From Gammaproteobacteria bacterium (GTDB lineage: Bacteria > Pseudomonadota > Gammaproteobacteria > UBA6429 > Thiohalophilaceae), in assembly GCA_024275115.1 (NCBI GenBank), contig JAJRZT010000065.1:4955-68954 (forward strand): DNA of 64,000 nucleotides, read 5' to 3'. A model generated the notes under the pieces. That model had not been told where the DNA came from. It was given only the letters and a program-made list of their open reading frames with translations, and searched no databases. Made by a program: the position numbers and the translations under genes. Positions 1-15,813 of the stretch are shown one piece after another (position 1 is the stretch's first letter; every line of letters begins with the position of its first letter).

Positions 1-525
1 CCCATCATGTAATTCATAATACCGGGATAGAGCAGAAACAGAGCCAGGGCCAGGCTGCCGCCGAACAAGGCGGTAATGGCATAGGCCGTAAGACTGATTT
101 TCATAAACTCGTGAGCCATGTCATCGTAACGCGCATCGCCACTCTTGAAACCGATGAATTCGATGACAAACACGAAAAGGGGTACCGCTAATACCAGCGC
201 ACCGAAGAACAAATGCATCTGCGCCAACACCCACACTACCGAACGACTCGAAACACCAAAACGACGATAGGATTTGTCTGTCATCTTCGGTGCCGGTTCC
301 GGCTCGGCCAGCGCATTATCTGGCTGCGCTGCCACAGCTTCACTATAGAGTGGTGACTGAGCGGCAACCTGCACATAACCCGTGGGCGCTATGTTATCCT
401 CGATGGAGGAACCTGCCCATGCTACGCCAGCTATAACCACCACCAAATACAACAACAGACCAAACAACACCCTCCACAGCCAGTGGAAATGAGAATAGCT
501 GCGCTGTGTATAATCCGCGTTCATG
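1..525 (-). CDS. Cytochrome bd family subunit I (CydA)-like membrane protein, N-terminal part. The 3' end runs off the window.
   Basis: My own translation of the minus strand from ATG at 525 gives MNADYTQRSYSHFHWLW...AQMHLFFGALVLAVPLFVFVIEFIGFKSGDARYDDMAHEFMKISL... A GAGGAG RBS lies upstream. The pattern resembles the E. coli CydA N-terminus (..AMYHFLFVPLTLG..SGK..YKDM..FW.KL). It is absent from the ORF track because it is truncated at the window edge. Confidence 0.5.
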
Positions 526-561
526 TAGATCTCCTCGACTGTGGCCTATTGATGTTACTTG

Positions 562-708
562 TCATTGTTCTGGTGTCCATTGTGCTGGGGTCAGATCCCA
601 ATTCAGGGGCAAACCCTGCATACCCATAATGGAATGATTCAGGCCATAGAAAAACAGCAACACCAACACGAATGTGACCAGCCAGATCGTGATTGTTTTT
701 AACGACAT
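562..708 (-). CDS. 48-aa single-TM peptide (MSLKTITIWLVTFVLVLLFFYGLNH...) directly upstream of the CydA-like gene
   Basis: ATG at 708 is preceded by a GAGGAA RBS and the stop TGA is at 562-564. It has a hydrophobic core and sits between two co-oriented genes. It is below the 60-aa ORF-track cutoff. Confidence 0.45.
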   Translation of the reverse strand: MSLKTITIWLVTFVLVLLFFYGLNHSIMGMQGLPLNWDLTPAQWTPEQ

Positions 709-735
709 TCGCTATTCCTCAATTTAGGGTGTGCA

Positions 736-915
736 TCAACCATGGTGGGGCACCACACCATGGGAATAGATCAACAGCCACCAGAAAAACACCAGAGTAA
801 CCACTAGCACCCCGATAAATAATCCGAAACCCCAGGTGCTACCTGCCCCTGCCCCACCTGTACTTCTCTCTGGTTCTGGTTCTGTTGCTTTTGAATCGTT
901 TTCCAGTTTTGTCAT
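736..915 (-). CDS. 59-aa single-TM peptide (MTKLENDSKATEPEPER...FGLFIGVLVVTLVFFWWLLIYSHGVVPHHG)
   Basis: ORF track 736..924. The ATG at 915 has a GGTGG RBS 5 nt upstream, so it is preferred over the GTG at 924. It is the first gene behind the minus-strand sigma-54-type promoter. Confidence 0.45.
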   Translation of the reverse strand: MTKLENDSKATEPEPERSTGGAGAGSTWGFGLFIGVLVVTLVFFWWLLIYSHGVVPHHG

Positions 916-995
916 CAATACCACCTCGTTTGCCTAGTCGAACCTCTGAATAACAATAAGGGGACGCTAAATCACTAAATGCCTTTCCACGAAAT

Positions 996-1011
996 AGCAA
1001 CAACCGCGCCA
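996..1011 (-). promoter_or_regulatory. Sigma-54 (-24/-12) type promoter for the small-peptide/CydA-like operon
   Basis: The minus strand reads CTGGCGC-GGTTG-TTGCT, against the consensus TGGCAC-N5-TTGCW. GG and GC have correct spacing and there is one mismatch. It lies about 70-85 nt upstream of the first start codon. Confidence 0.5.
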
Positions 1012-1197
1012 GCTATGCAAAATAACCATAACTCCCTGTTAATATTTGTTTTTAATTTTTTTCCTGAAATCAGAAAGGTCTGAAATTGAACAATCCATTC
1101 ACACACAACATCACCCAAACGTCATATGTTTCACTTTTTCTCCAGCTTGAGCGGAGGCCAAGTGCCCTATAAACAGAGATATACGGGTTAACAAACT

Positions 1198-1244
1198 GAA
1201 CAAACCGTTCCATGACCGGTCATGGCTTATGGAACGAAACGTTC
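1198..1244. promoter_or_regulatory. Compound palindrome, a candidate enhancer (UAS) for the NtrC-type activator
   Basis: GAACaaaccGTTC (1198-1210) is followed by the perfect 16-bp palindrome CCATGACCGGTCATGG (1210-1225) and GAACgaaacGTTC (1232-1244). It sits between the two divergent -24/-12 elements, separated from each by an AT-rich tract. Confidence 0.4.
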
Positions 1245-1322
1245 AAACCAGCGCCTGAAAACAACCAGGAATAATCACTTATATCTTTGTTTAAATAAGA
1301 TTTTTTTTGTTTCTTTATAGTG

Positions 1323-1339
1323 CGGCATAGTATGTGCAT
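1323..1339 (+). promoter_or_regulatory. Sigma-54 (-24/-12) like promoter for the HEAT-repeat operon
   Basis: cGGCAT-AGTAT-GTGCAt. The invariant GG (1324-1325) and GC (1336-1337) are at consensus spacing. It lies about 40 nt upstream of ATG 1379, which has a GGAGAA RBS. Confidence 0.4.
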
Positions 1340-1378
1340 CAGCCCAGTTCATAATGAACCACATCGGAGAACTGGAAG

Positions 1379-3784
1379 ATGACGGCCAAAAACAAAACCA
1401 TCACCGCCATTCGTGGCCTGCTCGCCAAGGGTGATGCCACAGACCGTTGCACCAGCTGTCGCGTTCTGGGGGTTCTGGGTGACAACACAGCGGTTGCCGA
1501 CCTGGTGGAACGTCTACGGGATGAGGACATCGATGTATGTGTGGATGCCGCCGAGGCTCTGGGTCGTATCGGTGATCCCGACAGCCTGACGCCTCTGCTG
1601 GAATCGTTGGATCATGACCCCAGCGGTGAAGTACGCACCGCCGTCATTAGCGCCCTGGGCACCTTTGATGATCCACGCGTCAATACTGCACTCATGCAAA
1701 TCATTGCTGATCGTCCGAATGACCTGGAATGGGATGGTGACTGGGATCCCTGGTGGGATATCCAGCTGCGCGCTGTTGAAATACTGGGACTTAAGCAGGC
1801 CTCGGAGGCAGTACCTGTATTATCGACTCTGCTGAACGATGAAGACATGCAGGACATTGAAAGTGAAACCCTTAAAGCCCTGGCGCAAATGGGTAAGCCC
1901 GGCGTAAAAATACTGGCTCACCGCTTACATCATGGCACTACCCGACAACGCCGGCGTGCCGCCCATGCCATGGCCTACGCGGACAATTCCGAGGTAACAC
2001 GTATTCTGGGGCAGTCGCTGCAAGATGCCAGTGCCGATGTGCGCATCGCCGCTATAGAAAGTCTGGCACAACTGCAAGTCAAGCACTATCTGGGTGTGAT
2101 TCTATTATTGATGCGAGACACCAGTGCCGATGTGCGAAATGCCGCACTTAAAGCGGCCATGGTATTAAGCCAACTGGAAGGCAGCAGCGGCATTACTACA
2201 GACCAACTCAAAAACTTACTGGCGGATCAAAGCAAGCAGGTTCGCTTGACCGCGCTGCAAGCCGTGGGTACTTCCACAGCAAGACCCTTACCGGTGGAAC
2301 TCACCAGTGTCATAGGTATATGTTTACAGGATCCTGATAGTGAAGTCGTGGCAATGGCGTGCGAATTATTATCCGAGGTAGCGGAACCAAGTCTATTGAA
2401 TGAGTTGATAACAATCATCAAGGACTCCAATCGTAATGAGCGCGTTAGGCGTGCAGCCGCGTTGGCCCTGGGTAAAATCACAGGTCAACATGAAAAAACC
2501 AACAGCGAAGTCATACAGGTATTCATGATGGTAGCAATGGACGAAGCGGCCGTCGTGCGGGTCGTCGCCATGCAAACTCTGGTGGAACTGGAGTCTGCTG
2601 ATCATGGCGACGAACAATCCCCTCTGGCATTCGTGATCGATTTATTACGCGGGGATTTCCTGCAAGACACACCCACACCACAACCCCATAAGTCCGACAA
2701 CATCGTTGTACCATTCACTGACACACCTGAAACGAAACCAGCTCATGGCAACACACAGCCAGAAGAGACTGCACACATGGAATATATTGACGTCGATACC
2801 GACGAGGAATTTGCCGAGCCGCCACTGGCGACCTCCACCCTGGCCGCCATCACCATAGACAACGTAGAGACTGCGATATTGCTCGATCAGCATGCGGAAC
2901 CTGAGGTGCAACAGACCGCAGAGAACGATGAGTCCTTGCAGGAATACGAGGAAATCGTGCGCAAGAATGCGGCTGCCGGCGAGTGGCTCCTGGCCAGTCG
3001 CAAGAAGCCTGCCCTGCATCAGCAGATTCGATGCACCGCCGCACGTATGCTGGCCTCCAGTAACAACAAGACAGTGATCAACGCGCTGATTGAAACACTG
3101 AGCGACCCGGATGATGAGTTACGCCGCGAATGCGCCGATGCCATTAGCATTATCGCCCATCGTCATCCGCAAACTGTCGGTCTGATGAATGCCTTTGGTG
3201 CCTTGCTAACGCAATTACACAGTGAGCACCTGGATCTACGCCTCGCCTGTCTACGTGCTCTGGAAGCCCTGGGTAATCGTGCAGCGCTGCCCATGATTTT
3301 AGAACTGGGGGATGATAAGGAAGCCAGTGTGCGCATTCAGTCCATCCGCAGCCTGGTCACATTAGCAACACAAGCTGCGGATCCACAGCAAACAGACCAC
3401 ATGGTACTGGAAGAAATCGAACCACAGGTTATTACCAGGCTATTGTTCAACAGCCTTGATGATTCCGCATCCGGGGTACGCAGCGCCACCATCCGCGGCC
3501 TGCTCAGCTGGCTCAAACACAACCCTGAACTGTGCACAGATGAGAAAATGCAAATACTGACCAACCGGATGCTGGATGCCGCGCTGAGCAGCGATGGCAG
3601 TCAGGCACGGGAAATGGGCCGCGCCCTGCGTTTGCTGGATCCAGAACTCAGTGTAGAACCAATATTGCAGCGTTTACAGGCACTGGATGACAGCGCACTG
3701 CGGCGTTTTGTTCTGGAAGTGCTGGAGGAACTGTATCGCCCTGAAACTCCAGACCCACTGTTATTAACAGGACGAGCCGCGTAA
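1379..3784 (+). CDS. HEAT / PBS-lyase-type repeat protein (801 aa) with a central acidic linker
   Basis: The motif ..VR..A..ALG.IGD.. recurs many times (e.g. VCVDAAEALGRIGDPDSLTPLL, VRTAVISALGTFDD, VRRAAALALGKI, LRRECADAISII). An acidic low-complexity segment (..EEFAEPPLA..AENDESLQEYEE..) lies mid-protein. Confidence 0.8.
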   Translation: MTAKNKTITAIRGLLAKGDATDRCTSCRVLGVLGDNTAVADLVERLRDEDIDVCVDAAEALGRIGDPDSLTPLLESLDHDPSGEVRTAVISALGTFDDPRVNTALMQIIADRPNDLEWDGDWDPWWDIQLRAVEILGLKQASEAVPVLSTLLNDEDMQDIESETLKALAQMGKPGVKILAHRLHHGTTRQRRRAAHAMAYADNSEVTRILGQSLQDASADVRIAAIESLAQLQVKHYLGVILLLMRDTSADVRNAALKAAMVLSQLEGSSGITTDQLKNLLADQSKQVRLTALQAVGTSTARPLPVELTSVIGICLQDPDSEVVAMACELLSEVAEPSLLNELITIIKDSNRNERVRRAAALALGKITGQHEKTNSEVIQVFMMVAMDEAAVVRVVAMQTLVELESADHGDEQSPLAFVIDLLRGDFLQDTPTPQPHKSDNIVVPFTDTPETKPAHGNTQPEETAHMEYIDVDTDEEFAEPPLATSTLAAITIDNVETAILLDQHAEPEVQQTAENDESLQEYEEIVRKNAAAGEWLLASRKKPALHQQIRCTAARMLASSNNKTVINALIETLSDPDDELRRECADAISIIAHRHPQTVGLMNAFGALLTQLHSEHLDLRLACLRALEALGNRAALPMILELGDDKEASVRIQSIRSLVTLATQAADPQQTDHMVLEEIEPQVITRLLFNSLDDSASGVRSATIRGLLSWLKHNPELCTDEKMQILTNRMLDAALSSDGSQAREMGRALRLLDPELSVEPILQRLQALDDSALRRFVLEVLEELYRPETPDPLLLTGRAA

Positions 3785-3887
3785 TAATGAAGCGCTATTT
3801 GATTTCAGTCTGTATCGGCTTATTTAACAAACACATTTGCATAGCATCAGGCGCAAGCGCCTCTTACCCTTATAGGAGAAACAACCC

Positions 3888-4621
3888 ATGAAGACAGCAA
3901 CTCACTTTTTACCCTTATTCCTGTCCCTGGCATTACCGCTCACTGCTCATGCGGCAGCCTACCAGGTAACTACGGTCAAGGACGGCAGCAGCATCAGCGG
4001 CAAGGTCACCTTCAGTGGTAAAGATCCGGCACCCCGCATATACAACATCACAAAAGACAACGAGGTATGTGGCACCGGCAACCGTGAAGTGGATTTTGTC
4101 AAAGTCAGCAAAGGCGGGCTTAGTGATGTCGTGGTCTACCTGGACAAAGTGAAAACTGGCAAAGCTTCACCGATGGTGCCGGCAAACTTAATCAGAAAGG
4201 CTGCGAGTTTACTCCGTTTCTGCAGGTCATGATCAACAAGAGAAATCTCGATGTCCTCAATTCGGATCCTGTTATGCATAACGTACACACCTATGAGCTC
4301 ATGGGCAGCGCTAAACGCACCGTAATCAACATCAGCCAGCCGAATCAAGGCAGCAACATTTCCAAAAAAATTAAACTGCGCCGCGGTGATGCCATGAAGA
4401 TCGAATGCGACGCACATGACTTCATGCACGGCTTTGTATTTGTCGCCCGTAACCCCTACTACGCGGTAGTGAAAAAAGATGGAAGCTTCACCATCGACAA
4501 CGTCCCAGCGGGAAAATATACCATCAATGCCTGGCACGGCACACTTGGCAAACAGAAAGCTAAAGTTTCTGTGGGCGCCAATGGCAAGGTCAGTGTGAAC
4601 TTTGCCTTCAAGGACAAGTAA
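3888..4621 (+). pseudogene. Periplasmic cupredoxin-like protein with a C-terminal carboxypeptidase-regulatory-like beta domain, split by an apparent 1-nt frameshift near 4160-4170
   Basis: ORFs 3888..4232 and 4229..4621 are two halves of one protein. Read upstream, the second frame gives ..FTDGAGKLNQKGCEFTPFLQVMINKRNLDVLNSDPVMHNVH.., continuing ..VVVYLDKVKTGKA from the first frame. It has a signal peptide (LPLTAHAAA), Cu-site-like residues (HNVH; CDAHDFMHG) and the motif DGSFTIDNVPAGKYTINAWH. Confidence 0.65.
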
Positions 4622-4779
4622 TGGGCGTCACAACAACAGACAACAGCGGCAACCCGGGTGGTTTAAACACCCGTGGTTTTTTCCGCCGCCTGACCCCCTT
4701 CGACTACCTGGTGCTGCTGGGAGGCGTCATTAACCTGCTGGTAGTGGGTTTTATCGTTGGATCCTGGCTGCTGCACTAG
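4621..4779 (+). CDS. 52-aa single-TM peptide (MGVTTTDNSGNPGGLNTRGFFRRLTPFDYLVLLGGVINLLVVGFIVGSWLLH)
   Basis: Its ATG overlaps the upstream TAA stop (TAATG at 4619-4623). Codon style is GC3-rich like its neighbours and the C-terminus is hydrophobic. It is below the ORF-track size cutoff. Confidence 0.4.
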   Translation: MGVTTTDNSGNPGGLNTRGFFRRLTPFDYLVLLGGVINLLVVGFIVGSWLLH

Positions 4780-4819
4780 CCGCAACATAACAAACAGCAA
4801 ACAAAGGGAATCCCACAAC

Positions 4820-7015
4820 ATGCCCACTGAAAGCGCAGAAATATTGGAAACCACGGAACCCTTACCTGTCTATCGATCTATCCTGCTGGCCACTGACTCC
4901 TCGGATCATGCCAACCGCAGCATCCTGGAAGCGGTGGTGGTGGCCGGACAATATAATGCCAGGGTGACAGGCACCCATGTATATGCCGCGAAGATGCATG
5001 ATATGCGCTTTCGGCAAATGGAGGGCGGGCTGCCGGAACAGTTTCGTGAAGAACAGGAACTGGAACGTCAACGGGATGTGCATGATGATCTGATCACCCG
5101 CGGCCTTTCCATCATCACGGACTCTTATCTGGATCAGGTCAGTCGCACATGTGCAACGAGCGCCATTCCTTTCGCCCGGCGCTCACTGGAAGGTAAAAAT
5201 TACCGGCAATTGGTTAATGAAACCAACTCCGGTGAGTATGATCTACTCATTCTCGGTGCGCTGGGACTCGGTGCCGTACAGGGCAGCCGCCTTGGTACGG
5301 TTTGCCATCGGGTGGCTCGACGTACGGATATCGATACCCTGATTATCAAACAACCCAAACAATCCATAGCCGCAGGGCCAATCGTAGTCGCCATTGATGG
5401 TTCCGCACGCGCTTATGGTGGACTCTTAACCGCACTTTCCTTTGCTGCACATTGGCAGGTTCCGGTCAAAGTTGTCTCCGCCTTTGACCCCTATTACCAC
5501 TATGTAGCCTTCAACCGTATCGCCGGTGTATTGTCCGAAGAGGCCGGCAAGGTATTCAAGTTCAAGGAACAGGAAAAGCTGCACGAAGAAATTATCGATT
5601 CGGGGCTGGCCAGGATCTACCAGGGCCACCTGGACGTAGCCACCTCCATCGCCGCAGAACATGGCATTGATATAGACACTGAACTACTGGTCGGCAAACC
5701 CCATCATATAATTCATGAATATGTACGCCAGCACAAACCCTCCCTGCTGGTACTGGGTAAAGTGGGCATCCATGCCGATCCGGATCTGGATATCGGTGGC
5801 AACACGGAATATTTATTAGAGGACGTGGGCTGTGCCGTATTACTGAGTCAACGCACCCACAAACCACGTCTGGATGTATTGGCCGATGTCACCACCACCT
5901 GGACTCACGAAGCCGAACAGCGTATGCAGAAGGTACCCGACTTTGTACAAAGCATGGCTCGCATGGCCATCCTGCGTTATGCCCAGGAGCTCGGCCATAC
6001 CGTCATCACGGCAAATATTGTCGAAGAAGCCACGGCGCAACTTATGCCTAGACATGCAGAAAGCGCCATGGAAGAAATCGTCAGCGCCTATGATGCCGGC
6101 GAATTAAAACGCAATGAAAACACCGTTCCTGAAATCGGTGTCGCCATGCAATGGAGCGATGCAGCAAGCACGCTACTGGACACCATTGAAGCTCCCACGG
6201 TACGCCAGAACCTGCGCATTCGTGCCGAGAAAAAGGCCCGTACCGAAGGTGCAACACAGGTAAAGAAACAACACATCGAACACTTCATCAGCGCTACAGA
6301 AGGTAAGAGCACAGGAGAATCCAGTGAAATCCATCTGCACTGGCAAGCCGATGCCCTTGCACGCCTGACACGGGTACCGGAAGGCTTTATGCGCGACAAG
6401 TCCCGAGAGCGCATCGAAGACTTCGCCCGCAGCCAGGGGATTACCCAAATTAATCTTGATGTCGCGGAACAGGGTCTGGCCGAAGCACGCAAAGCCATGG
6501 AGTCCCAAATGCAAAGTGACGGGGATGCCGCCGCGGCGGTAAAAACCAGAACCGGTGACAGCAAATGCCCCTTCGCACATATGGCACAAACCATCCCTAC
6601 GGGCGAAAAAACCAGTGAGTCTTTCGCCAGCATGGCATGGAGCCCTGAAGCGAAGCTGGAACTTGAGCGGGTACCCACGGGATTCTGCCGCGACATGACC
6701 CGCAAGGCGGCCGAAACCATTGCGGCCAAAAAAGGTACCGCTACCATTGAAGCAAGTTTTGTGGAAACCGTCATGAATGTCTTTGAGTCGGGATCCAGTA
6801 AAGCACAGGAAACCCTGCCCTGGGATGATGCCGCACGTGCGCGCATTCAGAAAGCGCCGGATATGATCTGCGGTATGTTGCTAAAAGAAATCGAAGCCTG
6901 GGCACAACGCCATGATCTGTCACACGTAAACGAGGCGGCGGTCAGTGCCGTAAAGGCACAATGGCAGGACGAAGGCCAGTTTCACCTGGAGCCCACCGAT
7001 CCACGGCGTGGTTAA
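4820..7015 (+). CDS. Tandem universal-stress-protein (UspA) domains fused to five PCP_red-like (BchB/ChlB C-terminal type) modules
   Basis: ORF track 4757..7015. The ATG at 4820 (MPTESAEIL) has an AGGGA RBS. The N-terminal half has two USP-like units (ILLATDSS..., LLILGALGLG; IVVAIDGS..., LLVLGKVGIH). The C-terminal half has five repeats built on W-x2-[ED]A-x3-L-x3-P-x-F..R....E.[FY]A...G, with the conserved W codons at 5900, 6152, 6341, 6638 and 6821. Confidence 0.8.
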   Translation: MPTESAEILETTEPLPVYRSILLATDSSDHANRSILEAVVVAGQYNARVTGTHVYAAKMHDMRFRQMEGGLPEQFREEQELERQRDVHDDLITRGLSIITDSYLDQVSRTCATSAIPFARRSLEGKNYRQLVNETNSGEYDLLILGALGLGAVQGSRLGTVCHRVARRTDIDTLIIKQPKQSIAAGPIVVAIDGSARAYGGLLTALSFAAHWQVPVKVVSAFDPYYHYVAFNRIAGVLSEEAGKVFKFKEQEKLHEEIIDSGLARIYQGHLDVATSIAAEHGIDIDTELLVGKPHHIIHEYVRQHKPSLLVLGKVGIHADPDLDIGGNTEYLLEDVGCAVLLSQRTHKPRLDVLADVTTTWTHEAEQRMQKVPDFVQSMARMAILRYAQELGHTVITANIVEEATAQLMPRHAESAMEEIVSAYDAGELKRNENTVPEIGVAMQWSDAASTLLDTIEAPTVRQNLRIRAEKKARTEGATQVKKQHIEHFISATEGKSTGESSEIHLHWQADALARLTRVPEGFMRDKSRERIEDFARSQGITQINLDVAEQGLAEARKAMESQMQSDGDAAAAVKTRTGDSKCPFAHMAQTIPTGEKTSESFASMAWSPEAKLELERVPTGFCRDMTRKAAETIAAKKGTATIEASFVETVMNVFESGSSKAQETLPWDDAARARIQKAPDMICGMLLKEIEAWAQRHDLSHVNEAAVSAVKAQWQDEGQFHLEPTDPRRG

Positions 7016-8333
7016 GCAGACGAATACCATGACCCTCGCAACCCAAACGGAAAACGATCTTTATCTGCTTGCGGTAAATATGACCCGCCGTTGCAATCTG
7101 AATTGCGCCCATTGTTATCTGGATGCAAAAACATTGCGCGAAAGCGGTGAAGATGAACTAACCACCACGGAGGTCTGCAATCTGCTGGACCAGGTGGCCG
7201 AACATAACCCGGAAACTATGGTGGTACTCACCGGCGGCGAACCTCTGATACGCAAGGATCTCGAAACCATGCTGACCCATGGTTCAGAATGTGGTCTATT
7301 CATGGTGATCGGCACCAACGGCATGATGCTTACGGAACGCCGGGTGCAATCCCTGCAGGCCGCTGGCGCCATGGGTTGTGGCATCAGCCTGGATTCCCTC
7401 GACCCTGCGCAACACGATGCCTTCCGCGGTTATCCCGGTGCCTGGCAAAAAACCATGGCAGGCATGGAAAACTGTCGTCGTCATGACCTGTCGTTTCAGG
7501 TTCATTTCTCCGTTACTGAAGCCAATGCTGCGGAAGTACCCGCCATGGTGGATTTCGCCCGTGCCTGTGGTGCGCGCGTATTGAATTTCTTTTTCCTGGT
7601 ATGCACAGGCCGTGGCGAATCCATGTCAGACATCAGCCCCATGGCCTATGAACGCGTGCTCAATCAGATACTGGATACCCAGGAACACAGTGAAGACTTG
7701 ATCATCCGTGCCCGCTGTGCACCCCACTTTCAACGCATCGCCCATCAACGCAATCCAGATTCACTGCTTACCCGAGCACAGGGTTATGACGGCAGCAGTT
7801 GTATTGCGGCCACCCACTACTGTCGCATCACACCGGAAGGTGGTGTCACTGCCTGTCCTTATATCCCCGACGAGGTGGGCAATATCCGCCAACAGACCTT
7901 CAAGGATATCTGGGAACAGGCACCGGGTCTGCAACAACTGCGTCAACCTCAACTGCAAGGCAAATGTGGACGTTGTGAATATATCCAACTGTGCGGCGGT
8001 TGCCGCGCCCGTGCCCTGGCAATGGAAGGCGACCTCATGCAGACCGACCCCTGGTGCCATTATATACCCCAGGAAGGCTCGGTCATCGTGCCTTTCACCG
8101 AACACGCTGATACGCTTCCGTGGAGTCAGGAGGCGCAACAACGACTGCAACGTATTCCCGCCTTTCTGCGCAAGATGGTGAAGAAACGTGCAGAAAGCTA
8201 CGTACGGGAACAGGGTGAGCAAGAGGTCAACATCACGCACCTGGCCACCTTGGTGGAAAAGCGCTTTGGTAAAAACGGTCCACCAGCAGCCCTCAAGGCG
8301 AAAATCAAAACACAGAGTACGCACCATGGATGA
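7008..8333 (+). CDS. Radical SAM/SPASM enzyme of NirJ/AhbC/AhbD type with a C-terminal PCP_red-like module
   Basis: It has a CNLNCAHCY (CxxxCxxC) cluster motif, a GGEPL motif and a Cys-rich SPASM region (..CPYIPDEVGNI..CGRCEYIQLCGGCRARA). The C-terminus reads LPWSQEAQQRLQRIPAFLRKMVKKRAESYVREQG. The start is GTG 7008 or ATG 7029. Confidence 0.85.
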   Translation: MVKQTNTMTLATQTENDLYLLAVNMTRRCNLNCAHCYLDAKTLRESGEDELTTTEVCNLLDQVAEHNPETMVVLTGGEPLIRKDLETMLTHGSECGLFMVIGTNGMMLTERRVQSLQAAGAMGCGISLDSLDPAQHDAFRGYPGAWQKTMAGMENCRRHDLSFQVHFSVTEANAAEVPAMVDFARACGARVLNFFFLVCTGRGESMSDISPMAYERVLNQILDTQEHSEDLIIRARCAPHFQRIAHQRNPDSLLTRAQGYDGSSCIAATHYCRITPEGGVTACPYIPDEVGNIRQQTFKDIWEQAPGLQQLRQPQLQGKCGRCEYIQLCGGCRARALAMEGDLMQTDPWCHYIPQEGSVIVPFTEHADTLPWSQEAQQRLQRIPAFLRKMVKKRAESYVREQGEQEVNITHLATLVEKRFGKNGPPAALKAKIKTQSTHHG

Positions 8334-9750
8334 TACCGACATACTCATCGCTGGTGGCGGCATCTCCGGTTTGACGCTGGCCTGGTGGCTGGCACAAAGT
8401 GGTTACCGGGTAGAAGTATGGGAAGCCGACACTCGTGTCGGCGGCAAAATCCAGAGTACGCAGCAAGACGGTTACCTGATGGAACAGGCCGCCTCGTTAT
8501 TAATGAATTTCCGTCCGGAAGTCTCGGGGCTCATTCATCACACCGGACTGGAATCCAAAAAAACCTGTCGCAATAAACAAGCCGGTGCTCACCGTTACCT
8601 GTTACATCAGGGACAGCTCACCGCCCTGCCCATGCGTATGGGCGGCCTGCTGCGTTCACCACTGTGGAGTCTGCGGGGCAAGCTGCGCCTGCTGGCAGAA
8701 CCCTTTATGCCAGTGGGCACAGACCCCGATGAGTCTGTCAGTCAATTTATTCAACGGCGTCTAGGGCGTGAAATGCTGGAAAAGGCGATGGATCCCTTTG
8801 TCGCAGGCACCCTGGCAGCAGATCCGGATCTCGCCAGCGCCGCCGCCACCCTGCCACGACTCACGGTTCTGGAAAAACGTTATGGCAGTATCACCGCCGG
8901 CATCATCGCCCACCGGCTATTACGCAAGCGCAGTGCCTGTCTCACCGATACCTTTTCATTCGAGGGCGGCATGTCTACCCTGATCGAAACCCTCGCAAAC
9001 ACCCCCGGTGTGCAGGTGCGCACTGGCTATAAGCTGCGAGAACTGGTACGCAGCCCAAAGGGCTGGCAAGCCCGGGCGGAAACCCCTCACGGCGAATATC
9101 AACTGAATACAAAGAAAACCGTGCTGGCAACACCGGCACCGGTGGCTGCACAATTATTAGATAACCTCGACACAGAGTTGGCGGAGCTACTGCGCGGTAT
9201 CCGCTATGCGCCGCTGGCGGTAGTACATATCGGCATGCAGCGCAAACACATAACACATCCACTGGATGGCACCGGCTTTCTCACACCACGCAGTGCCGGG
9301 CTGCCTATTAATGGCAATCTATGGATGAGCAGCCTGTTCAATGGGCGCGCACCACAGGGCAAGGTGTTGATGACGACTTATCTGGGGGGGGCGCGCCGCC
9401 CCGAATTGCTTGAATATGATGATAACCACCTCTTGAATCAGACCTTACAATCCCTGCAACCCCTGCTGGGCTTGCAAAGTGACCCTGAAATGGTGCAGAT
9501 TCAACGTCATACCCAAGGGCTTCCAGTGTATCATGGTGCTTATCAGGCTCGACTGCAGGCTATCGAGGAAAAAATGCATTGTTTACCGAATCTCTATTTA
9601 GAGGCCAATTATCAAGGTGGTGTATCAGTACGCGACCGCATTGCTCGCAGCTACCTGCTGGCACAACGCATCACCGCGGAGCTACCTATCACGAGAACCT
9701 ATGACAAAAAGGACAATTATGCACCCACCCTCGCCACCGACAGCAGATGA
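8326..9750 (+). CDS. FAD-dependent protoporphyrinogen/coproporphyrinogen oxidase-like protein (HemY/CgoX family)
   Basis: In-frame ATG at 8326 gives MDDTDILIAGGGISGLTLAWWL..VEVWEADTRVGGKI, a dinucleotide-binding fold. The C-terminus reads ..LYLEANYQGGVSVRDRI. The ATGGATGA overlap with the radical SAM stop argues against the 8188 start in the ORF track. Confidence 0.7.
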   Translation: MDDTDILIAGGGISGLTLAWWLAQSGYRVEVWEADTRVGGKIQSTQQDGYLMEQAASLLMNFRPEVSGLIHHTGLESKKTCRNKQAGAHRYLLHQGQLTALPMRMGGLLRSPLWSLRGKLRLLAEPFMPVGTDPDESVSQFIQRRLGREMLEKAMDPFVAGTLAADPDLASAAATLPRLTVLEKRYGSITAGIIAHRLLRKRSACLTDTFSFEGGMSTLIETLANTPGVQVRTGYKLRELVRSPKGWQARAETPHGEYQLNTKKTVLATPAPVAAQLLDNLDTELAELLRGIRYAPLAVVHIGMQRKHITHPLDGTGFLTPRSAGLPINGNLWMSSLFNGRAPQGKVLMTTYLGGARRPELLEYDDNHLLNQTLQSLQPLLGLQSDPEMVQIQRHTQGLPVYHGAYQARLQAIEEKMHCLPNLYLEANYQGGVSVRDRIARSYLLAQRITAELPITRTYDKKDNYAPTLATDSR

Positions 9751-10108
9751 GCGGGTGGATGAGAGATCTGTCCCGCATGCCAGCACTGCTGATCCCAAGC
9801 CTGACAAACCGAAAGGATTTCGTCCCTGGCCTTTGATCCTTGCAGTCACTACCGCCTTATTGCTGGTACCCCTATGGAGCAACTGGTATGCCGATCAAGT
9901 ATCCCTGCCGCGTTACTGCAAGAATCCCGAACTTAGCCTGCAACAACTGGAGCAAGTGTTACGGGAAAAACAGCCGGCTGGTGACGGCGCACGTAAACCT
10001 TACATCATTGTTGCCAAATTGTTGTTTCTGATACCTCAGAACGGTAATGAGTCCATCCCCGCCTATCTATCAAGAGTACGCGGAATACTACGTACGCAGT
10101 GTCAATGA
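9701..10108 (+). CDS. Hypothetical membrane-anchored protein
   Basis: ORF track 9617..10108, with internal ATGs at 9701 and 9719. It has a Pro/charged N-terminus and then one TM segment (WPLILAVTTALLLVPLW). It overlaps both neighbouring genes. I recognised no family. Confidence 0.4.
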   Translation: MTKRTIMHPPSPPTADERVDERSVPHASTADPKPDKPKGFRPWPLILAVTTALLLVPLWSNWYADQVSLPRYCKNPELSLQQLEQVLREKQPAGDGARKPYIIVAKLLFLIPQNGNESIPAYLSRVRGILRTQCQ

Positions 10109-12684
10109 ATCTGGTTATCCCAAAACATCAGGAGCTCCGCCGCAACTTTCTGAAACATCTGCTATCGATGCTATTGCTGGCAGCCCTGGTATTGGCTATC
10201 GGAATCTGGGCGCATTATAAGAGCAATGCAAGACTGGAGACCCACACTCGCGATCAGGCGGAAGTCCAAAACGTGGGACTGGCCTGGCAAACCCTGTCCA
10301 CCAGCATGCAATTAGTGTTTGGTGACCTGTTATTCCTTTCACAATTAAACGAATTGAATAATATGCTGGATCGTGCGGATCGACCCTGGCGCAGGGCACT
10401 CAGCGATGAATTGATAAACTTCAGCCGCGCACGCGACCTTTATGCTCAAATCCGCTTCATCGATGCGACCGGCCAGGAAATTGTGCGTGTTAACCACAAC
10501 AACGGCAAGCCGTTTTCCGAGTTAGACATAAACTTGCAGTCCAAGGTGGCGCGTTACTACTTCGGCCAGACCATGGCACTGAAACCCGGCAAAATCTTTG
10601 TATCCCCCTTTGACCTGAATCAGGAAAAGAGCCGTCTGGAACATCCCCTCAAACCCGTCATTCGCGTCGCCACCCCGCTGGTGGACGAACAAGGGCAAAA
10701 GGCCGGCATCCTGATTTTGAATATCCTTGGAGAAAAGTTGGTTCGCGGTTTCAGGGATGCTGCGGTCAACATCGCCGACCAGATTATGTTGGTCAACGCC
10801 GATGGCGACTGGTTAAGCAGTAAAAACCGTGAAGACGAGTGGGGTTTTATTCTGGGGCATGAACGCTCCTTCGCTACCCGTTTTCCGGAAGTCTGGCAAA
10901 ACATTAAAGACCGAGATCAGGGGCAGCTACATCATCAACAGGGTCTGTTTACCTTTGCCACCCTGTTTCCCGACAAGCCAACCGCAAAGAACCGGCAAAG
11001 CACACCACATATTCCTGATAGCATCGGCCAGAAAGCATACGGGCAGCGCAACTGGAAAATTATCGCTCACATTACTCCCCAGGTATTGCACATCGGTCCA
11101 CAGGGCTTTCTGCGCAATAATGCCCTGCTGTATACTGTTATAAGTTTACTGCTTGTTTTACTGGCGCTAGTAGTAGCCTGGGGTCAGGCTCGTCATCAGA
11201 TCATCCTTGCGCAACGCGATTATGAACGGCTTTTCCGTGACACCATGGAAAATGTGGATCTGGCGGTCGTGACCCTGGTTCCTGATGGAAAAATCATCTA
11301 TTGCAACGACTTCTTTTTAAACCAGACCGCCTACAAGAAACACGAGGTATTAGGTAAAGACTGGTTTGATACCTACATATCATCGGAAGACCGCAGCCAG
11401 GAACGAAAATACTTCGCTGGCATCCTGACTAAACCTGAAACCCCGGGGCGTCATAATAACCAGCTCATGACTCAACTCGGAAAGCGACGCCGGTTTCACT
11501 GGAATTACAGTGTCTCTTTAGAACACGATGGGCAGGTTCACAGTGTTACCGCCATCGGCGAAGACACAACGGAGCACCACCATACAAAGGTGGAATTGAA
11601 CAAGCTGATTAATGCCGTGGAACAAAGCCCCAATACCGTGCTGATCACCGATACTCAAGGCCTGATTGAATATGTAAATCCCAACTTCACCAACCTCACC
11701 GGTTACACAAAAGAAGAAGTCATTGGCAAAAGCCCCAGCATTTTGAAAACCGGAGAAACACCGCCTGAGGTCTATAAGGAGTTGTGGAGTACTATCTCCA
11801 ATGGCGGCGAATGGCGTGGCGAGTTTCATAATCGTAAGAAAAACGGTGAACTGTACTGGGAATTCACCATTATTTCGCCGATTGTTGACAGCAAAGGCAA
11901 CATCACAAATTTTCTTGCCGTCAAGGAAGATGTCACGGAACGCAAACGCCTACAACAGGAAGTGGAGGATCGTAACAAGGAATTGATACGTACCCAATCA
12001 CTTACGGTTATCGGCCGCATGGCCAGCATGATAGCCCATGATCTACGCAACCCTTTATCTTCGGTAAAAATGAGCCTGCAAATCCTGGGTAAGCAGAACC
12101 AGAAAAAAGAGGAGTCCGAGGAACTCAAAGACATTGCTCTGGCGCAGGTGCACTACATGGAAGAGATCCTGGAGGACATGTTGCAGTACTCACGCCCCGA
12201 TGCCTTAAAGCCGGAATGGCTGGATATCAACAAGCTACTGGATATGGCGGTGGCCCTGACGGGCAAGGCCATCAATGAGCGCAATGCCAAAATAACCACA
12301 AACTACGCCGCCCAATTACCCACTCTGCACGGTGACCCCAACAAGTTGCGCCAGGTCTTCAGCAACCTGATCATGAATGCCTTACAGGCCATGGACAATA
12401 CCGGCATCCTGCCGGAAGTCGATATTCAAACCAGCCTTGAGTTATACGACAACGAGCCCCGCGTGCGCGTTGAAATCTGCGATAACGGGCCTGGCATTAA
12501 CGGTACGGAAGCGGACAAGCTGTTTGAACCATTCTTCACCACCCGCACGAAAGGCACTGGACTGGGCCTGGCCATTGTTAAACGACTGCTGGAGCAACAT
12601 CACGGTGCCGTCCAGCTGCTACCTGGTGAAAAAGGCGGCATACGTGCCGTAGTTATTCTCCCCACGAGTCAGTTAAAGGTATGA
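10099..12684 (+). CDS. Sensor histidine kinase: periplasmic Cache-like domain, two PAS domains, HisKA and HATPase
   Basis: Two TM segments flank a roughly 290-aa extracytoplasmic domain. PAS S-box-like segments are present (..VTLVPDGKIIYCND.., ..ITDTQGLIEYVNPNFTNLTGYTKEEVIG..). The H-box is MIAHDLRNPL and the G-box is GTGLGLAIVKRL. Confidence 0.85.
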   Translation: MSMNLVIPKHQELRRNFLKHLLSMLLLAALVLAIGIWAHYKSNARLETHTRDQAEVQNVGLAWQTLSTSMQLVFGDLLFLSQLNELNNMLDRADRPWRRALSDELINFSRARDLYAQIRFIDATGQEIVRVNHNNGKPFSELDINLQSKVARYYFGQTMALKPGKIFVSPFDLNQEKSRLEHPLKPVIRVATPLVDEQGQKAGILILNILGEKLVRGFRDAAVNIADQIMLVNADGDWLSSKNREDEWGFILGHERSFATRFPEVWQNIKDRDQGQLHHQQGLFTFATLFPDKPTAKNRQSTPHIPDSIGQKAYGQRNWKIIAHITPQVLHIGPQGFLRNNALLYTVISLLLVLLALVVAWGQARHQIILAQRDYERLFRDTMENVDLAVVTLVPDGKIIYCNDFFLNQTAYKKHEVLGKDWFDTYISSEDRSQERKYFAGILTKPETPGRHNNQLMTQLGKRRRFHWNYSVSLEHDGQVHSVTAIGEDTTEHHHTKVELNKLINAVEQSPNTVLITDTQGLIEYVNPNFTNLTGYTKEEVIGKSPSILKTGETPPEVYKELWSTISNGGEWRGEFHNRKKNGELYWEFTIISPIVDSKGNITNFLAVKEDVTERKRLQQEVEDRNKELIRTQSLTVIGRMASMIAHDLRNPLSSVKMSLQILGKQNQKKEESEELKDIALAQVHYMEEILEDMLQYSRPDALKPEWLDINKLLDMAVALTGKAINERNAKITTNYAAQLPTLHGDPNKLRQVFSNLIMNALQAMDNTGILPEVDIQTSLELYDNEPRVRVEICDNGPGINGTEADKLFEPFFTTRTKGTGLGLAIVKRLLEQHHGAVQLLPGEKGGIRAVVILPTSQLKV

Positions 12685-14123
12685 TACGCACTATGGAAAA
12701 TAAATCTTTAAACACCACCGGCAACACTGCATCTGCCGGGAAACGTGACCGTATCCTGATCGTGGATGATGACGTAGCCATCTGCCGCACCCTGCAGCTG
12801 CACTTGCAGGGACAAGGTTATCTAATTGCCACGGCACACAGTATCGATGAAGGCATGCAGGCTGCCAATACACAGACACCAGATATGATCATCCTGGATA
12901 TCCGCATGCCAGGCACCTCCGGTCTCGAAGGCCTGCCCGAATTCAAAAAGATTTTTCCCAATACCCATGTGATTATAATCACCGCCTTCCAAGACATGGA
13001 GAGCACCATTCAAGCTATGCAACGAGGTGCGGAAGACTATATCCACAAGCCCATCGACATCGACGAGCTGGACCGTGTTATGAAACGCATCCTGACCAAT
13101 AATGCTGAATGCCAAATCATCGATACCGATATTCGCGCACCGGCAGCAGGCTCGGTAAGCATGGTGGGACGCAGTTGGGCCATGAAGGAGGTATTCAAGA
13201 ACATCGGCCTGGTGGCGGCTAGCCCGGTCACGGTATTGATCACTGGCGACAGCGGCACGGGCAAAGAGCTGGTCGCGCAGGCCATCCACCGTTCCGGCAG
13301 TAATCCGGACGCCCCCTTCGTCGCAATCAATTGTGCGGCTCTGGTGGAGACCCTGTTGGAATCCGATATGTTTGGCCATGAAAAAGGCGCCTTTACCGGT
13401 GCCACCAGCCAACAACAAGGCAAATTTGCCCTAGCAGAAAACGGCACGATCTTTTTGGATGAAATAGGTGAATTGTCGCCCACCATGCAAGCAAAACTGT
13501 TACGTGTGCTACAGGAGAAGGAATACACTCCCCTGGGAGCCAAGCAGCCCCGACATACTAATGCCCGAGTTATCGCCGCCACTAATGTGGATCTCAACGA
13601 GAAGGTGCAGAGCGGCGGGTTCCGTGGAGACCTGCTCTACCGTTTACAAGTGGTCACCTTGCATCTACCACCCTTGCGTGAACGCAAGGAAGATATCACT
13701 GCGCTCATCCCTGCACTACTGGCACGTATCAATCGCGATTTGCATAAAAATATCTGTCAGGTTTCCCAGGAAGTACTGGATGGGCTTCAAAGCTATGACT
13801 GGCCAGGCAATGTACGTGAACTGGAAAACAGCCTGGCCAAGGCCGTAGCCTTGTGTTCAGGCACGATTCTCACACCGGATCTGTTTGGCAATATCTGCGG
13901 TGAATCCGCAGTAACTGAAAAACCCCTGGAAGAAACGAGCCTGCAGGAAATTGAAAAGATCCATGTACTACGTGTATTGGAAGCACAAGGATGGCACAAG
14001 GGCAAAACCTGCGAGATCCTTGGCATATCCCGGCCACGCCTGCGCCGGCTGCTCAATCAATATGGGTTGCCCTCATCAGACGGCGTGATGCCGGATGATG
14101 ACATTGATTCGGACGATACATGA
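12681..14123 (+). CDS. NtrC-family sigma-54-dependent response regulator (REC, AAA+, Fis-type HTH)
   Basis: The REC domain reads ILIVDDD...DMIILDIRMPG. Walker A is GDSGTGKE and the sigma-54 contact loop is GHEKGAFTGA. The C-terminal HTH reads KTCEILGISRPRLRRLL. An ATGA overlap links it to the kinase gene. Confidence 0.9.
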   Translation: MIRTMENKSLNTTGNTASAGKRDRILIVDDDVAICRTLQLHLQGQGYLIATAHSIDEGMQAANTQTPDMIILDIRMPGTSGLEGLPEFKKIFPNTHVIIITAFQDMESTIQAMQRGAEDYIHKPIDIDELDRVMKRILTNNAECQIIDTDIRAPAAGSVSMVGRSWAMKEVFKNIGLVAASPVTVLITGDSGTGKELVAQAIHRSGSNPDAPFVAINCAALVETLLESDMFGHEKGAFTGATSQQQGKFALAENGTIFLDEIGELSPTMQAKLLRVLQEKEYTPLGAKQPRHTNARVIAATNVDLNEKVQSGGFRGDLLYRLQVVTLHLPPLRERKEDITALIPALLARINRDLHKNICQVSQEVLDGLQSYDWPGNVRELENSLAKAVALCSGTILTPDLFGNICGESAVTEKPLEETSLQEIEKIHVLRVLEAQGWHKGKTCEILGISRPRLRRLLNQYGLPSSDGVMPDDDIDSDDT

Positions 14124-14419: not shown

Positions 14420-15604
14420 TTAAAGCGTCTGGTAATAATCAATCAAGATTTTAGCCACTTCTGGGCGTGAGAATTCTTTAGGTGGCGCTTCGCCGTTGCC
14501 TAACATTTCACGTACTTTAGTTCCTGACAAAAGAACAAAGTCATCTTTTTCATGATCAGGTGCTTCACGCATCATCACCACTTTATTCAGTTTCTTCGAC
14601 CAGGCGGTGTGATCTGCCATGAACATTTCAATGTCCATTGCACCCTTAGGCACTTCGTCTTCGAAAATAGTTTGTGCATCAAAGGCACCGTAGTAATCGC
14701 CCACACCGGCGTGGTCACGACCAATGATAAAGTGCGTTGCACCCATATTTTGACGGAAGTAAGCATGTAACACCGCTTCACGTGGACCAGCATAAAGCAT
14801 ATCGAAACCGTAACCCGTTACCATTGCGCTGTTTGCAGGGAAATAAACTTCTACCATTTTACGAATAGCAGCGTCACGAACAGGAGCAGGGATGTCACCT
14901 TTTTTCAATTTACCCAACAACATGTGAATAACCAGGCCATCACAACCTAAACGATCCATTGCCATGTGGCAAAGTTCTTCATGTGCAAGGTGCATTGGAT
15001 TACGCGTTTGGAAAGCAACAACTTTTTTCCAGCCATGCTCAGAAATTTCATTACGAATCTCAACAGCGGTACGGAAAGTATCTGGGAATTCAGTTTGGAA
15101 GTAGCTAAAATTTAAGACCTGAATCGGGCCGGAAACAGCCGTTTGACCCTGACCATTAAATGCAGCAACACCTGGGTGTTCCATATCATCCGTACGATAA
15201 ACTTTATCGGTCATCGTTTTCATTTGCGCGTCCGTTACTTGCTCAATGGCTTCAACATCCATAACAGCAATAACAGGGTTACCGTCCACATTCGGGTCAC
15301 GCAACGCAATACGTTTTGCATCACCAATGGCATCGGCATTTTCTAATAAGCACATTACTGGAACGGGGAAGAATGAACCGTCGGTAAGGGTCATTTTTTC
15401 TGCGGCACCCATTGCATCAGCAACGCTCATAAAACCTTTTAACGGGCTAAAATAACCACCAGCCATCATTACTGCATTACCGGCAGCTTGTGAACTGATC
15501 ACGACAGAAGGTAGAGACTTCGCTTCTTTGCTCAGCTTGTCATGTTCGGCAACGTCATAGACGAAGCGCGGTTGTAATTCATCGGAACCTATTGGTTTAA
15601 TCAT
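14420..15604 (-). CDS. sat: Sulfate adenylyltransferase (ATP sulfurylase)
   Basis: Motifs QTRNPMHLAHEEL and HFIIGRDHAGVG. The start is taken at MIKPIGSDEL (ATG 15604, GAGGA upstream) rather than 15619. Confidence 0.9.
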   Translation of the reverse strand: MIKPIGSDELQPRFVYDVAEHDKLSKEAKSLPSVVISSQAAGNAVMMAGGYFSPLKGFMSVADAMGAAEKMTLTDGSFFPVPVMCLLENADAIGDAKRIALRDPNVDGNPVIAVMDVEAIEQVTDAQMKTMTDKVYRTDDMEHPGVAAFNGQGQTAVSGPIQVLNFSYFQTEFPDTFRTAVEIRNEISEHGWKKVVAFQTRNPMHLAHEELCHMAMDRLGCDGLVIHMLLGKLKKGDIPAPVRDAAIRKMVEVYFPANSAMVTGYGFDMLYAGPREAVLHAYFRQNMGATHFIIGRDHAGVGDYYGAFDAQTIFEDEVPKGAMDIEMFMADHTAWSKKLNKVVMMREAPDHEKDDFVLLSGTKVREMLGNGEAPPKEFSRPEVAKILIDYYQTL

Positions 15605-15813
15605 CCTGTGTATCCTCATTGTTGGTTATGGCCTCGCCGTTGACTGCAAGAAGCGAGCGACACATTTCGTCATTTTAAAATCTGTAAATACTGGAATGGT
15701 TCTACGAACCTGCTCCAGTACCCATAAAAAAGTACGCCAACTATACAGCACTCTATACTCAGGTGAATATTAAGGTAATTTATAAGGCCATAGATGCGCT
15801 AAGCTATTGAAAT

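Follow-up and report, generated by a model that had tools for sequence, protein, structure and literature searches.

Five PCP_red repeats on a tandem universal stress protein, encoded beside an AhbD/NirJ-like radical SAM enzyme: a possible scaffold of a tetrapyrrole-processing module

The PCP_red domain (PF08369) is found at the C-terminus of BchB/ChlB, which is subunit B of the dark-operative protochlorophyllide reductase (DPOR). In published work on this enzyme, the helix covering the pigment is named merely 'the BchB C-terminal helix' (PMC4071322), and substrate binding is reported to need Leu426 of P. marinus ChlB (PMC13474568). The PCP_red segment of ChlB comprises residues 477–519 in 2YNM_D. 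Since Leu426 lies upstream of this segment, a contact of PCP_red with the pigment cannot be claimed, and the idea of PCP_red as a lid over protochlorophyllide could not be established from the published work considered. Here we describe a protein in which the same domain is found in five copies. We have analysed 64,000 nucleotides of a gammaproteobacterial contig (assembly GCA_024275115.1, contig JAJRZT010000065.1, positions 4,955 to 68,954, family Thiohalophilaceae), and this whole stretch is called the window below. A gene on its forward strand (4820..7015, +) encodes a 731-aa protein with two universal stress protein (USP) domains followed by five PCP_red repeats, and it has full-length orthologues at 59–88% identity. 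An earlier note on this DNA, made from the letters alone, had pointed to the repeats and likened them to the C-terminus of BchB/ChlB.

The open reading frame (ORF) extends over 4757..7015 (+), giving 752 aa if a TTG start is used and 731 aa counted from the ATG at 4820. Translation probably begins at this ATG, since the TTG is overlapped by a small conserved ORF upstream (4621–4779); in addition, a Shine-Dalgarno-like AAAGGGA is located just 5' of the ATG. As neither a signal peptide nor a transmembrane segment is visible, the protein is predicted to be cytoplasmic. An exact-sequence look-up of the 731-aa protein matched no record. Two antisense ORFs over the repeat region, 6088–6846 (−, 252 aa) and 6173–6589 (−, 138 aa), were treated as shadow ORFs of a GC-rich, conserved plus-strand gene, which is most likely what they are.

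Scanned as a whole against Pfam with hmmscan, the protein scores 147.6 bits for PCP_red (E 9.9e-44) and 89.1 bits for Usp, the latter in two stretches. As the E-values are computed over 24,736 models, the repeat matches are far beyond chance. The five PCP_red-like modules claimed by the earlier note were all recovered, since every repeat scanned singly matches PF08369 and covers essentially the entire model of 45 positions, for which the gathering score is 32.5 bits. Above this score are repeat 1 (residues 359–412, 5894..6055, +; 55.9 bits, E 4.4e-15), repeat 3 (residues 506–559, 6335..6496, +; 47.5 bits, E 1.8e-12) and repeat 4 (residues 605–658, 6632..6793, +; 41.9 bits, E 1e-10), and below it are repeat 2 (residues 443–496, 6146..6307, +; 22.1 bits, E 1.6e-4) and repeat 5 (residues 666–719, 6815..6976, +; 21.9 bits, E 1.9e-4). 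By profile score, repeats 1, 3 and 4 are thus assigned as formal PCP_red members, and repeats 2 and 5 as sub-threshold divergent copies. The five in-frame Trp codons listed by the note (5900, 6152, 6341, 6638 and 6821) are indeed Trp361, Trp445, Trp508, Trp607 and Trp668 of the 731-aa protein, one in each repeat. The family consensus of repeat 1 reads TSWTxEAExrMerVPsFVrxMArMAILRYAQExGHTVIT. Repeat 2 lacks P-x-F, and its helix pattern in the AlphaFold2 (AF2) model is the same, with a predicted local distance difference test (pLDDT) value of ~83; for the divergent repeat 5 the pLDDT is 85–92. Repeat 4 carries a conserved G-F-C-R-D-M-T, with Cys623 conserved in at least 90% of cases.

The AF2 model of the whole protein, built with 50 orthologues, has a mean pLDDT of 73.7 and a predicted template modelling score (pTM) of 0.48, at which the inter-domain geometry is uninformative. 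The anatomy is that of beads on a string: the tandem USP core is followed by five modules, all with the order strand, short helix, long helix, strand and helix. The modules are modelled confidently, and the linkers 427–439, 493–502 and 566–603 are disordered (pLDDT <50). A profile made from the repeats matches T. elongatus ChlB (2XDQ_B residues 458–507) with an E-value of 3e-11, and further matches the stand-alone PCP_red entries 2KRU and 2L09 as well as the BchB/ChlB chains of 2YNM (2YNM_D), 3AEK (3AEK_B) and 8VQH. Foldseek with the full model returned USP matches only, and a single-repeat model was therefore used for PCP_red. The model of repeat 3 (pLDDT 92.7) adopts the small strand and three-helix fold of the solved PCP_red structures. 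Its best PDB match is 2KRU, with a template modelling (TM) score of 0.73 and a root-mean-square deviation (rmsd) of 1.6 Å; the TM score against 2L09 is 0.68, and the rmsd to ChlB in the DPOR complex (2YNM_D) is 1.2 Å over 49 columns. Based on the profile match and these superpositions, the homology to the BchB/ChlB C-terminus, to which the earlier note had pointed, holds. On the other hand, a BchB fragment or a mis-assembled DPOR gene is ruled out, as there is no nitrogenase-like domain and no Oxidored_nitro in the Pfam scan. With the model of DPOR subunit B (TIGR01278; cut-off 490 bits), the score is 94.7 bits and the match is confined to positions 455–510 of 512, so the protein is not BchB.

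The double USP half proposed by the earlier note is also confirmed. Domain 1 (~residues 18–177, 4871..5350, +) was found by Pfam, the AF2 model and Foldseek, and domain 2 (~residues 186–343, 5375..5848, +) by Pfam and the AF2 model. Searched with Foldseek, the N-terminal half matches Rv2623, UspE/YdaA and the ATP-bound TTHA0350 with E-values from 4e-12 to 1e-10 and target-normalised TM scores of 0.65–0.83. With two Usp stretches and the tandem fold, the protein falls into the tandem-type USPs (PF00582). In all 120 homologues, domain 1 carries the ATP-binding motif G-x2-G-x9-G-[ST] (G146-x2-G149-x9-G159-T160 here), by which it is predicted to be of the ATP-binding subclass (MJ0577 type). Domain 2 has a variant motif without Ser/Thr, G-x2-G-x9-G-G, in 117 of the 120 (G313-x2-G316-x9-G326-G327 here). 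The most invariant segments of the family are both inside the USP domains: residues 53–72 (window 4976–5035; HVYAAKxHDxRFRQMEGGLP) and residues 223–248 (5486–5563; DPYYHYVAFNRIAGVLSEEAGKVFxF), both with many His, Met and Tyr residues. Precisely these stretches have an AF2 pLDDT below 50. Invariant sequence with low model confidence is typical of regions that order only upon ligand or partner binding, and the two segments are candidates for such a site.

A protein search at E ≤ 1e-5 has found 4,024 clusters. The best 120 of these 4,024 are all full-length, 59–88% identical, with both Pfam domains, and named, if at all, 'universal stress protein'. A scan of one genome per species with two patterns gave at least 600 pattern matches, at least 594 of them confirmed, which corresponds to at least ~300 genes. 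In a profile search of 1.84 billion representatives, we obtained 1,652 PCP_red-like clusters, and the 69 that reach E ≤ 1e-30 are multi-repeat proteins. Overall, full-length orthologues with ~60% identity are spread over hundreds of genomes, from Proteobacteria, Acidobacteria and Nitrospirae that oxidise sulfur and iron. The hosts include Sedimenticola, Thiodiazotropha, tubeworm and clam symbionts, Beggiatoa-like bacteria, Thiolapillus, Acidiferrobacteraceae, Gallionella/Ferrigenium, Sulfuricellaceae, Parvularculaceae and Mariprofundaceae. Judged from these searches, the USP-PCP_red architecture is widespread and visible in public databases, and its parts are known domains. The remark that no characterised protein has such an array agrees with our literature searches, but an architecture with thousands of clusters is not an unusual one. 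In the alignment of 50 orthologues, the mean column identity is 59%, and every repeat retains its own signature across ~50 orthologues and their taxa. This indicates that the five repeats are not interchangeable; that is, the alignment marks the five copies as old and individually constrained.

We have further compared the gene neighbourhoods of 83 loci, of which 63 have enough downstream sequence and 40 have 8 kb or more of sequence on either side. A radical S-adenosylmethionine (SAM) gene is located directly downstream of the USP-PCP_red gene in 59 of the 63 loci, and a HemY-like gene follows downstream in 54 of them. Among the 40 flanked loci, a cytochrome c containing an EB_dh domain is found within 10 kb in 33, and a cytochrome bd-like gene within the same distance in 30. 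Acidobacteria have the same gene set, including the bd-like/EB_dh pairing, in another order. In Sulfuricaulis (locus L005, 1501–9149), the USP/radical SAM/HemY-like trio stands beside a molybdenum bis(pyranopterin guanine dinucleotide) (Mo-bisPGD)/NarJ/EB_dh set instead of a bd-like operon. This set consists of a periplasmic-type Mo-bisPGD enzyme (1182 aa), an Fe-S subunit, a NarJ-like chaperone and a cytochrome c-EB_dh protein. What the loci have in common may thus be the heme-b domain EB_dh and not the bd-like subunit. Two distant relatives with ~40% identity or less and extra domains (loci L086 and L089) still adjoin a gene for a radical SAM enzyme with SPASM and PCP_red domains. L089 also adjoins bd-like, cytochrome c and EB_dh genes, and in L086 the pair is kept with no oxidase operon visible. 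L086 additionally encodes a 328-aa protein consisting of PCP_red modules alone. Since the pair persists in distant relatives, the invariant core appears to be the USP-PCP_red and radical SAM-PCP_red proteins, usually with a bd-like/EB_dh operon. As far as we have found, this fixed partnership of the family with a PCP_red-bearing AhbD/NirJ-like enzyme beside bd-like operons is undescribed.

In the window, the radical SAM/SPASM enzyme is encoded at 7008..8333 (+) and has Pfam matches to Radical_SAM, SPASM and PCP_red (54.4 bits), with CxxxCxxC and the SPASM cysteines present. Its NCBIfam scores are 320.9 bits for NirJ2, 305.1 for AhbD, 177 for AhbC, 173 for NirJ and 118 for PqqE, with TIGR04053 and NirJ1 also among the best. 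By these matches it is placed in the tetrapyrrole-modifying (AhbD/NirJ) clade and not in any named family. It carries one C-terminal PCP_red module (~8121–8243). In the enzymes of other loci we count 1–3 modules with a hidden Markov model (HMM) of the repeat, and four W-x-x-[EA]-A starts are seen in Endoriftia. The enzymes of Endoriftia and most Betaproteobacteria have three to four modules. The observed copy pairs of USP protein and enzyme (5+3, 5+1, 4+1 and 3+3) give no simple rule of copy-number compensation between the two. In size the family of this enzyme equals that of the USP protein, and it is annotated inconsistently, as radical SAM protein, AhbD or PqqE. The next gene (8326..9750, +) encodes a divergent HemY-family flavoprotein that resembles protoporphyrinogen/coproporphyrinogen oxidases. 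It scores 253.5 bits with the protoporphyrinogen oxidase model TIGR00562, above the cut-off of 97.85, and fails the narrower equivalogs NF008845 (201.6 against 560) and NF009081 (138.3 against 702). The start of the radical SAM gene overlaps the stop of the USP gene, and the start of the HemY-like gene overlaps the stop of the radical SAM gene. These overlapping codons suggest translational coupling.

PCP_red, a rare domain, is carried by two different enzymes of tetrapyrrole clades, subunit B of DPOR and the radical SAM enzyme, and is multicopy on both members of the invariant pair, for which reason we favour a docking or hand-off role in a tetrapyrrole pathway. The link to tetrapyrroles rests on the gene context, not on the repeat itself. 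The earlier note had imagined a multivalent scaffold for tetrapyrroles or partner proteins. Of this idea, the docking of partners fits a context in which the adjacent enzyme also bears PCP_red, but that PCP_red binds tetrapyrroles has yet to be established, even for DPOR.

A further conserved element is located between repeats 3 and 4. Cys583-Pro584-Phe585 (6566..6574, +), followed by Ala-His, is kept in 115 of 120 homologues within a linker that is otherwise variable and has an AF2 pLDDT of 28–41. The context here is SKCPFAHM, and the family form is K/R/G-C-P-F. In sequence, a heme-regulatory motif (HRM) is a Cys-Pro with a hydrophobic residue next to it, within a flexible part of the chain, and the element resembles such a motif by analogy. 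CP motifs are typically located in flexible loops, and the IRP2-derived peptides TPILCPFHL and TPILCPFLHQPV bind heme with a dissociation constant (KD) of ~0.7–0.8 µM; for CPFH and CPFLH peptides derived from IRP2 the KD is sub-micromolar to micromolar (~0.7 µM for CPFLH) (PMC10377097). In distant relatives, the repeat 3–4 linker contains either rubredoxin-like Cys4 modules (Pfam RUBY_RBDX), one or two in number, or CP[VI]xH motifs in pairs. Of 149 multi-repeat representatives examined, Cys4 linkers occur in 37 and CP linkers in 26. Because CPF is kept here and Cys4 or CP modules are present in relatives, the linker seems to be a conserved site for a Cys-based ligand, either heme or metal. Rubredoxin-like Cys4 or CP[VI]xH insertions between PCP_red repeats are seen in the representatives P0127, P0124, P0189, P0135, P0136 and P0156. 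The last of them combines three PCP_red copies with a rubredoxin-like module and a Haem_oxygenas_2 domain, and adjoins an Rrf2 regulator and a COX3 gene. No CP motif was found in the PCP_red tails of 71 radical SAM enzymes.

The cluster in the window matches the Endoriftia locus gene for gene. It begins with the 5' part of a cytochrome bd-like (CydA-like) gene (1..473, −), which is divergently transcribed with its start at 473 and runs off the window. By tblastn it is 57% identical to residues 12–172 of the Endoriftia protein, and the Pfam domain Cyt_bd_oxida_I was found on that orthologue. In organisms that oxidise nitrite, sulfur, iron or manganese, the terminal oxidases are presumed to include bd-like enzymes that lack the quinol site, named the OR-N family by Murali et al. 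(bioRxiv 10.1101/2021.01.16.426971; PMC12342949); the gene in the window is classed here as bd-like in the broad sense. Next come, by gene order, a small membrane protein, and then an 801-aa HEAT-repeat protein of phycobilisome (PBS)-lyase type (1379..3784, +; HEAT_2 206 bits, HEAT_PBS E 3e-17), which has sub-threshold matches to CpcE, CpcF and NblB and is syntenic in 19 of the 40 flanked loci. A secreted CarboxypepD_reg-like protein (3888..4621, +) is split over two overlapping frames, 3888–4232 and 4229–4621, with the break near 4172–4232. Endoriftia encodes the protein in one uninterrupted gene of 246 aa, and the split could be a frameshift, a pseudogene or a sequencing error. The small ORF that overlaps the TTG (4621..4779, +) encodes a 52-aa membrane protein, which is conserved upstream of the USP gene and matches a 38-aa gene of Endoriftia by tblastn. 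Behind the HemY-like gene, a ~100-aa membrane-anchored protein (9806..10108, +) is 44% identical to a 109-aa gene of Endoriftia and present in 20 of the 40 loci, and has no Pfam match. A PAS sensor histidine kinase (10099–12684, +) and a sigma-54-dependent response regulator (12681–14123, +) close the cluster, and this pair is found in 24 of the 40 loci.

The whole cluster forms one sharp compositional island in the window. From 1 to 14123, the GC content is 0.523 and that at third codon positions (GC3) is 0.55–0.59 (six genes), against 0.435 and 0.39–0.48 (eleven genes) from 14124 to 64000. This suggests that the cluster moves as a unit, and it looks like a horizontally acquired island. The first gene past the step in composition is an ATP sulfurylase (14420–15619, −). 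A sigma-54-like −24/−12 element with 1 mismatch, TGGCGCGGTTGTTGC, is located at 997–1011 (−) upstream of the divergent bd-like operon and fits the co-encoded sigma-54 regulator; in the window as a whole, the 8 sigma-54-like sites found are not above chance (7.2 expected).

As a tentative best explanation, which we regard as possible rather than probable, the protein may be the cytoplasmic scaffold or sensor of a dedicated tetrapyrrole-processing module that serves the adjacent bd-like/cytochrome c/EB_dh complex, and would thereby help to make its heme cofactor or to deliver it. The catalyst of such a module would be the adjacent AhbD/NirJ2-like radical SAM/SPASM enzyme, assisted in Proteobacteria and Acidobacteria by the HemY-family oxidase, and its customer would be the neighbouring respiratory complex with its bd-like subunit, c-type cytochromes and EB_dh heme-b domain. 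The tandem USP core would bind adenine nucleotide and form a folded hub; the five three-helix PCP_red modules on their disordered linkers would act as multivalent docking units for the PCP_red-bearing radical SAM enzyme or a shared partner; and CPF in the repeat 3–4 linker might transiently ligate heme, either to sense the product or to hand it on. This explanation is supported by the identity of the domains, the bead-like anatomy with its repeat-specific signatures, the linkage to the radical SAM and HemY-like genes and to the respiratory operon, the island, CPF, the USP motif and the PBS-lyase-type HEAT protein. What the domains are, how they are strung together, how well they are conserved and which genes they are linked to is shown here; a tetrapyrrole as substrate, docking through PCP_red, heme at CPF and a service to the bd-like complex are inferred.

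Several observations weigh against it. In DPOR, the residue tied to substrate binding is outside PCP_red, and the domain may play no part at all in contacting the pigment. The fold as modelled is apparently a generic small helical module, as AAA+ lid domains are the next structural neighbours of repeat 3 after the PCP_red entries, and the pTM of the whole-protein model gives no hold on how the domains are arranged. The radical SAM enzyme is below all NCBIfam equivalog cut-offs (500 bits for NirJ2 and AhbD), and peptides are often modified by SPASM enzymes. The 80 loci analysed are those of the closest relatives, so that the synteny percentages are biased towards one clade; in 6 of the 40 fully flanked loci, the surrounding 10 kb contain neither a bd-like nor an EB_dh nor a Mo enzyme gene, and the HemY-like gene is absent from the distant loci L086 and L089. 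As for the linker, the His after CPF is not conserved, Cys is missing in 5 of 120 homologues, and the rubredoxin-like Cys4 modules that relatives place in the same linker point to metal or redox chemistry rather than heme. In addition, literature searches with PCP_red, PF08369 and IPR013580, and with USP together with the partner genes and host taxa, gave no publication on the family, and a Gallionellaceae pangenome paper and a Nitrospirales comparative paper leave these genes unmentioned.

The linker is also where a different explanation begins. The protein could be a redox adaptor for the radical SAM enzyme, in which the PCP_red array docks, the Cys element of the linker (Cys4 in relatives, reduced to CPF here) bears a metal or redox centre and moves electrons to or from the enzyme for SAM cleavage or oxidative decarboxylation, the nucleotide state of the USP core gates the process, and tetrapyrrole is never bound. 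The pairing with the radical SAM enzyme is invariant, as this would need, and RUBY_RBDX modules are located between PCP_red repeats in P0127, P0124, P0189 and P0156, those of P0127 in the repeat 3–4 linker itself; the counts of Cys4 and CP linkers given above tell in the same direction. However, the single linker Cys of the window protein and of 115 of 120 close homologues cannot make a Cys4 site, no further conserved Cys is present near CPF (Cys623 sits within repeat 4), and the rubredoxin-like modules of relatives could equally be structural zinc ribbons. We therefore take this explanation seriously but consider it unlikely. If the respiratory complex is put at the centre instead, PCP_red could bind apoprotein segments or assembly factors, such as the HEAT protein, and the family could work as an assembly chaperone or regulator in the style of NarJ/TorD, without tetrapyrrole chemistry. 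The tight linkage to the bd-like/EB_dh operon across phyla and the co-encoded HEAT-repeat protein agree with this, and so does the uspA gene kustd1706 in the nitrite oxidoreductase (NXR) cluster of Kuenenia, where the bd-like kustd1712 is also present (PMC6423088), although kustd1706 was compared as a USP gene only. But the linkage to the radical SAM gene (59/63) is tighter than that to the bd-like gene (30/40), L086 retains the former pair with no visible oxidase operon, and respiratory subunits are membrane or periplasmic proteins while the USP-PCP_red protein is a predicted cytoplasmic one. Weighing these points, we find such a role quite unlikely.

Two simpler views can be set aside with more ease. 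All annotation sources call the protein 'universal stress protein', USPs are common near respiratory genes, and a PAS kinase with a sigma-54 regulator is co-encoded, so it might be an ordinary stress-responsive USP with a helical tail of no specific role, whose neighbourhood reflects co-regulation at low oxygen and not shared function. This is very unlikely in view of the very high full-length conservation (59% mean column identity across classes, with repeat-specific invariant positions), the same rare domain on the neighbouring enzyme, the persistence of the gene pair in distant lineages, and the overlaps of start and stop codons. Finally, SPASM enzymes frequently modify repeated peptide motifs, and here repeats with an invariant Trp adjoin such an enzyme, which raises the view that the USP-PCP_red protein is its substrate and is post-translationally modified at one residue per repeat. 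Since the nearest radical SAM families are tetrapyrrole enzymes, not peptide maturases, the enzyme itself carries the same repeats, and the known substrates of SPASM enzymes do not resemble a folded multidomain protein of 731 aa, we regard this view as highly improbable.

Returning to the explanation by a scaffold or sensor in a tetrapyrrole-processing module, the three-gene set of tetrapyrrole-enzyme ancestry beside bd-like operons would offer a testable handle on how heme is supplied to such complexes. PCP_red outside chlorophyll synthesis, and a large family labelled only 'universal stress protein', would for the first time be placed in a functional context, and there would be, if CPF binds heme, a bacterial case of HRM signalling linked to a biosynthetic module. 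A wider and more doubtful extension is that the radical SAM-PCP_red protein, the USP protein with its five PCP_red repeats and, where present, the HemY-like protein make up an unrecognised heme-maturation pathway, possibly for a modified heme, that serves the bd-like/EB_dh complexes of sulfur-, iron- and nitrite-oxidising bacteria, with PCP_red as a general domain for tetrapyrrole hand-off or docking and CPF as a transient heme site.

Compared with known systems, the protein combines features that are described separately. With the HRM proteins IRP2 and HRI it shares a C-P-F core in a disordered segment, and CPFAH of the window protein resembles CPFLH of IRP2. It differs from them in being bacterial, with a single motif, a downstream His that is not conserved, heme binding that is predicted from the motif, and relatives that have rubredoxin-like modules at the CPF position. 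With the tandem USPs Rv2623 of M. tuberculosis, UspE/YdaA of E. coli and Salmonella and TTHA0350 of T. thermophilus it shares the two-USP pseudo-dimer fold and, in domain 1, the canonical ATP motif, but the window protein has a PCP_red tail of 370 residues, the G-G variant of the motif in domain 2, and helical inserts (residues 53–72 and 223–248) that are nearly invariant and modelled with low confidence.

The repeats themselves are homologous in sequence to the PCP_red domains of DPOR BchB/ChlB, 2KRU (Chlorobium) and 2L09 (Nostoc Asr4154), with a fold TM score of 0.73, an rmsd of 1.2–1.9 Å and the common signature W-x2-[EA]A...P-x-F-x-R...A. In both systems the domain is appended to an enzyme, that of tetrapyrrole metabolism in DPOR and the neighbouring radical SAM enzyme here. 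DPOR has one copy, whereas here five copies stand on flexible linkers without nitrogenase-like catalytic domains; the hosts of the USP-PCP_red protein are non-phototrophic, and the role of PCP_red is undefined even in DPOR. As to the radical SAM enzyme, its likeness to AhbD (heme b synthase), NirJ, NirJ1, NirJ2 and AhbC is seen in top HMM matches that span the full catalytic and SPASM region. It differs from AhbD and NirJ in its scores below the equivalog cut-offs, in its 1–4 C-terminal PCP_red modules, and in being always paired with a USP-PCP_red protein.

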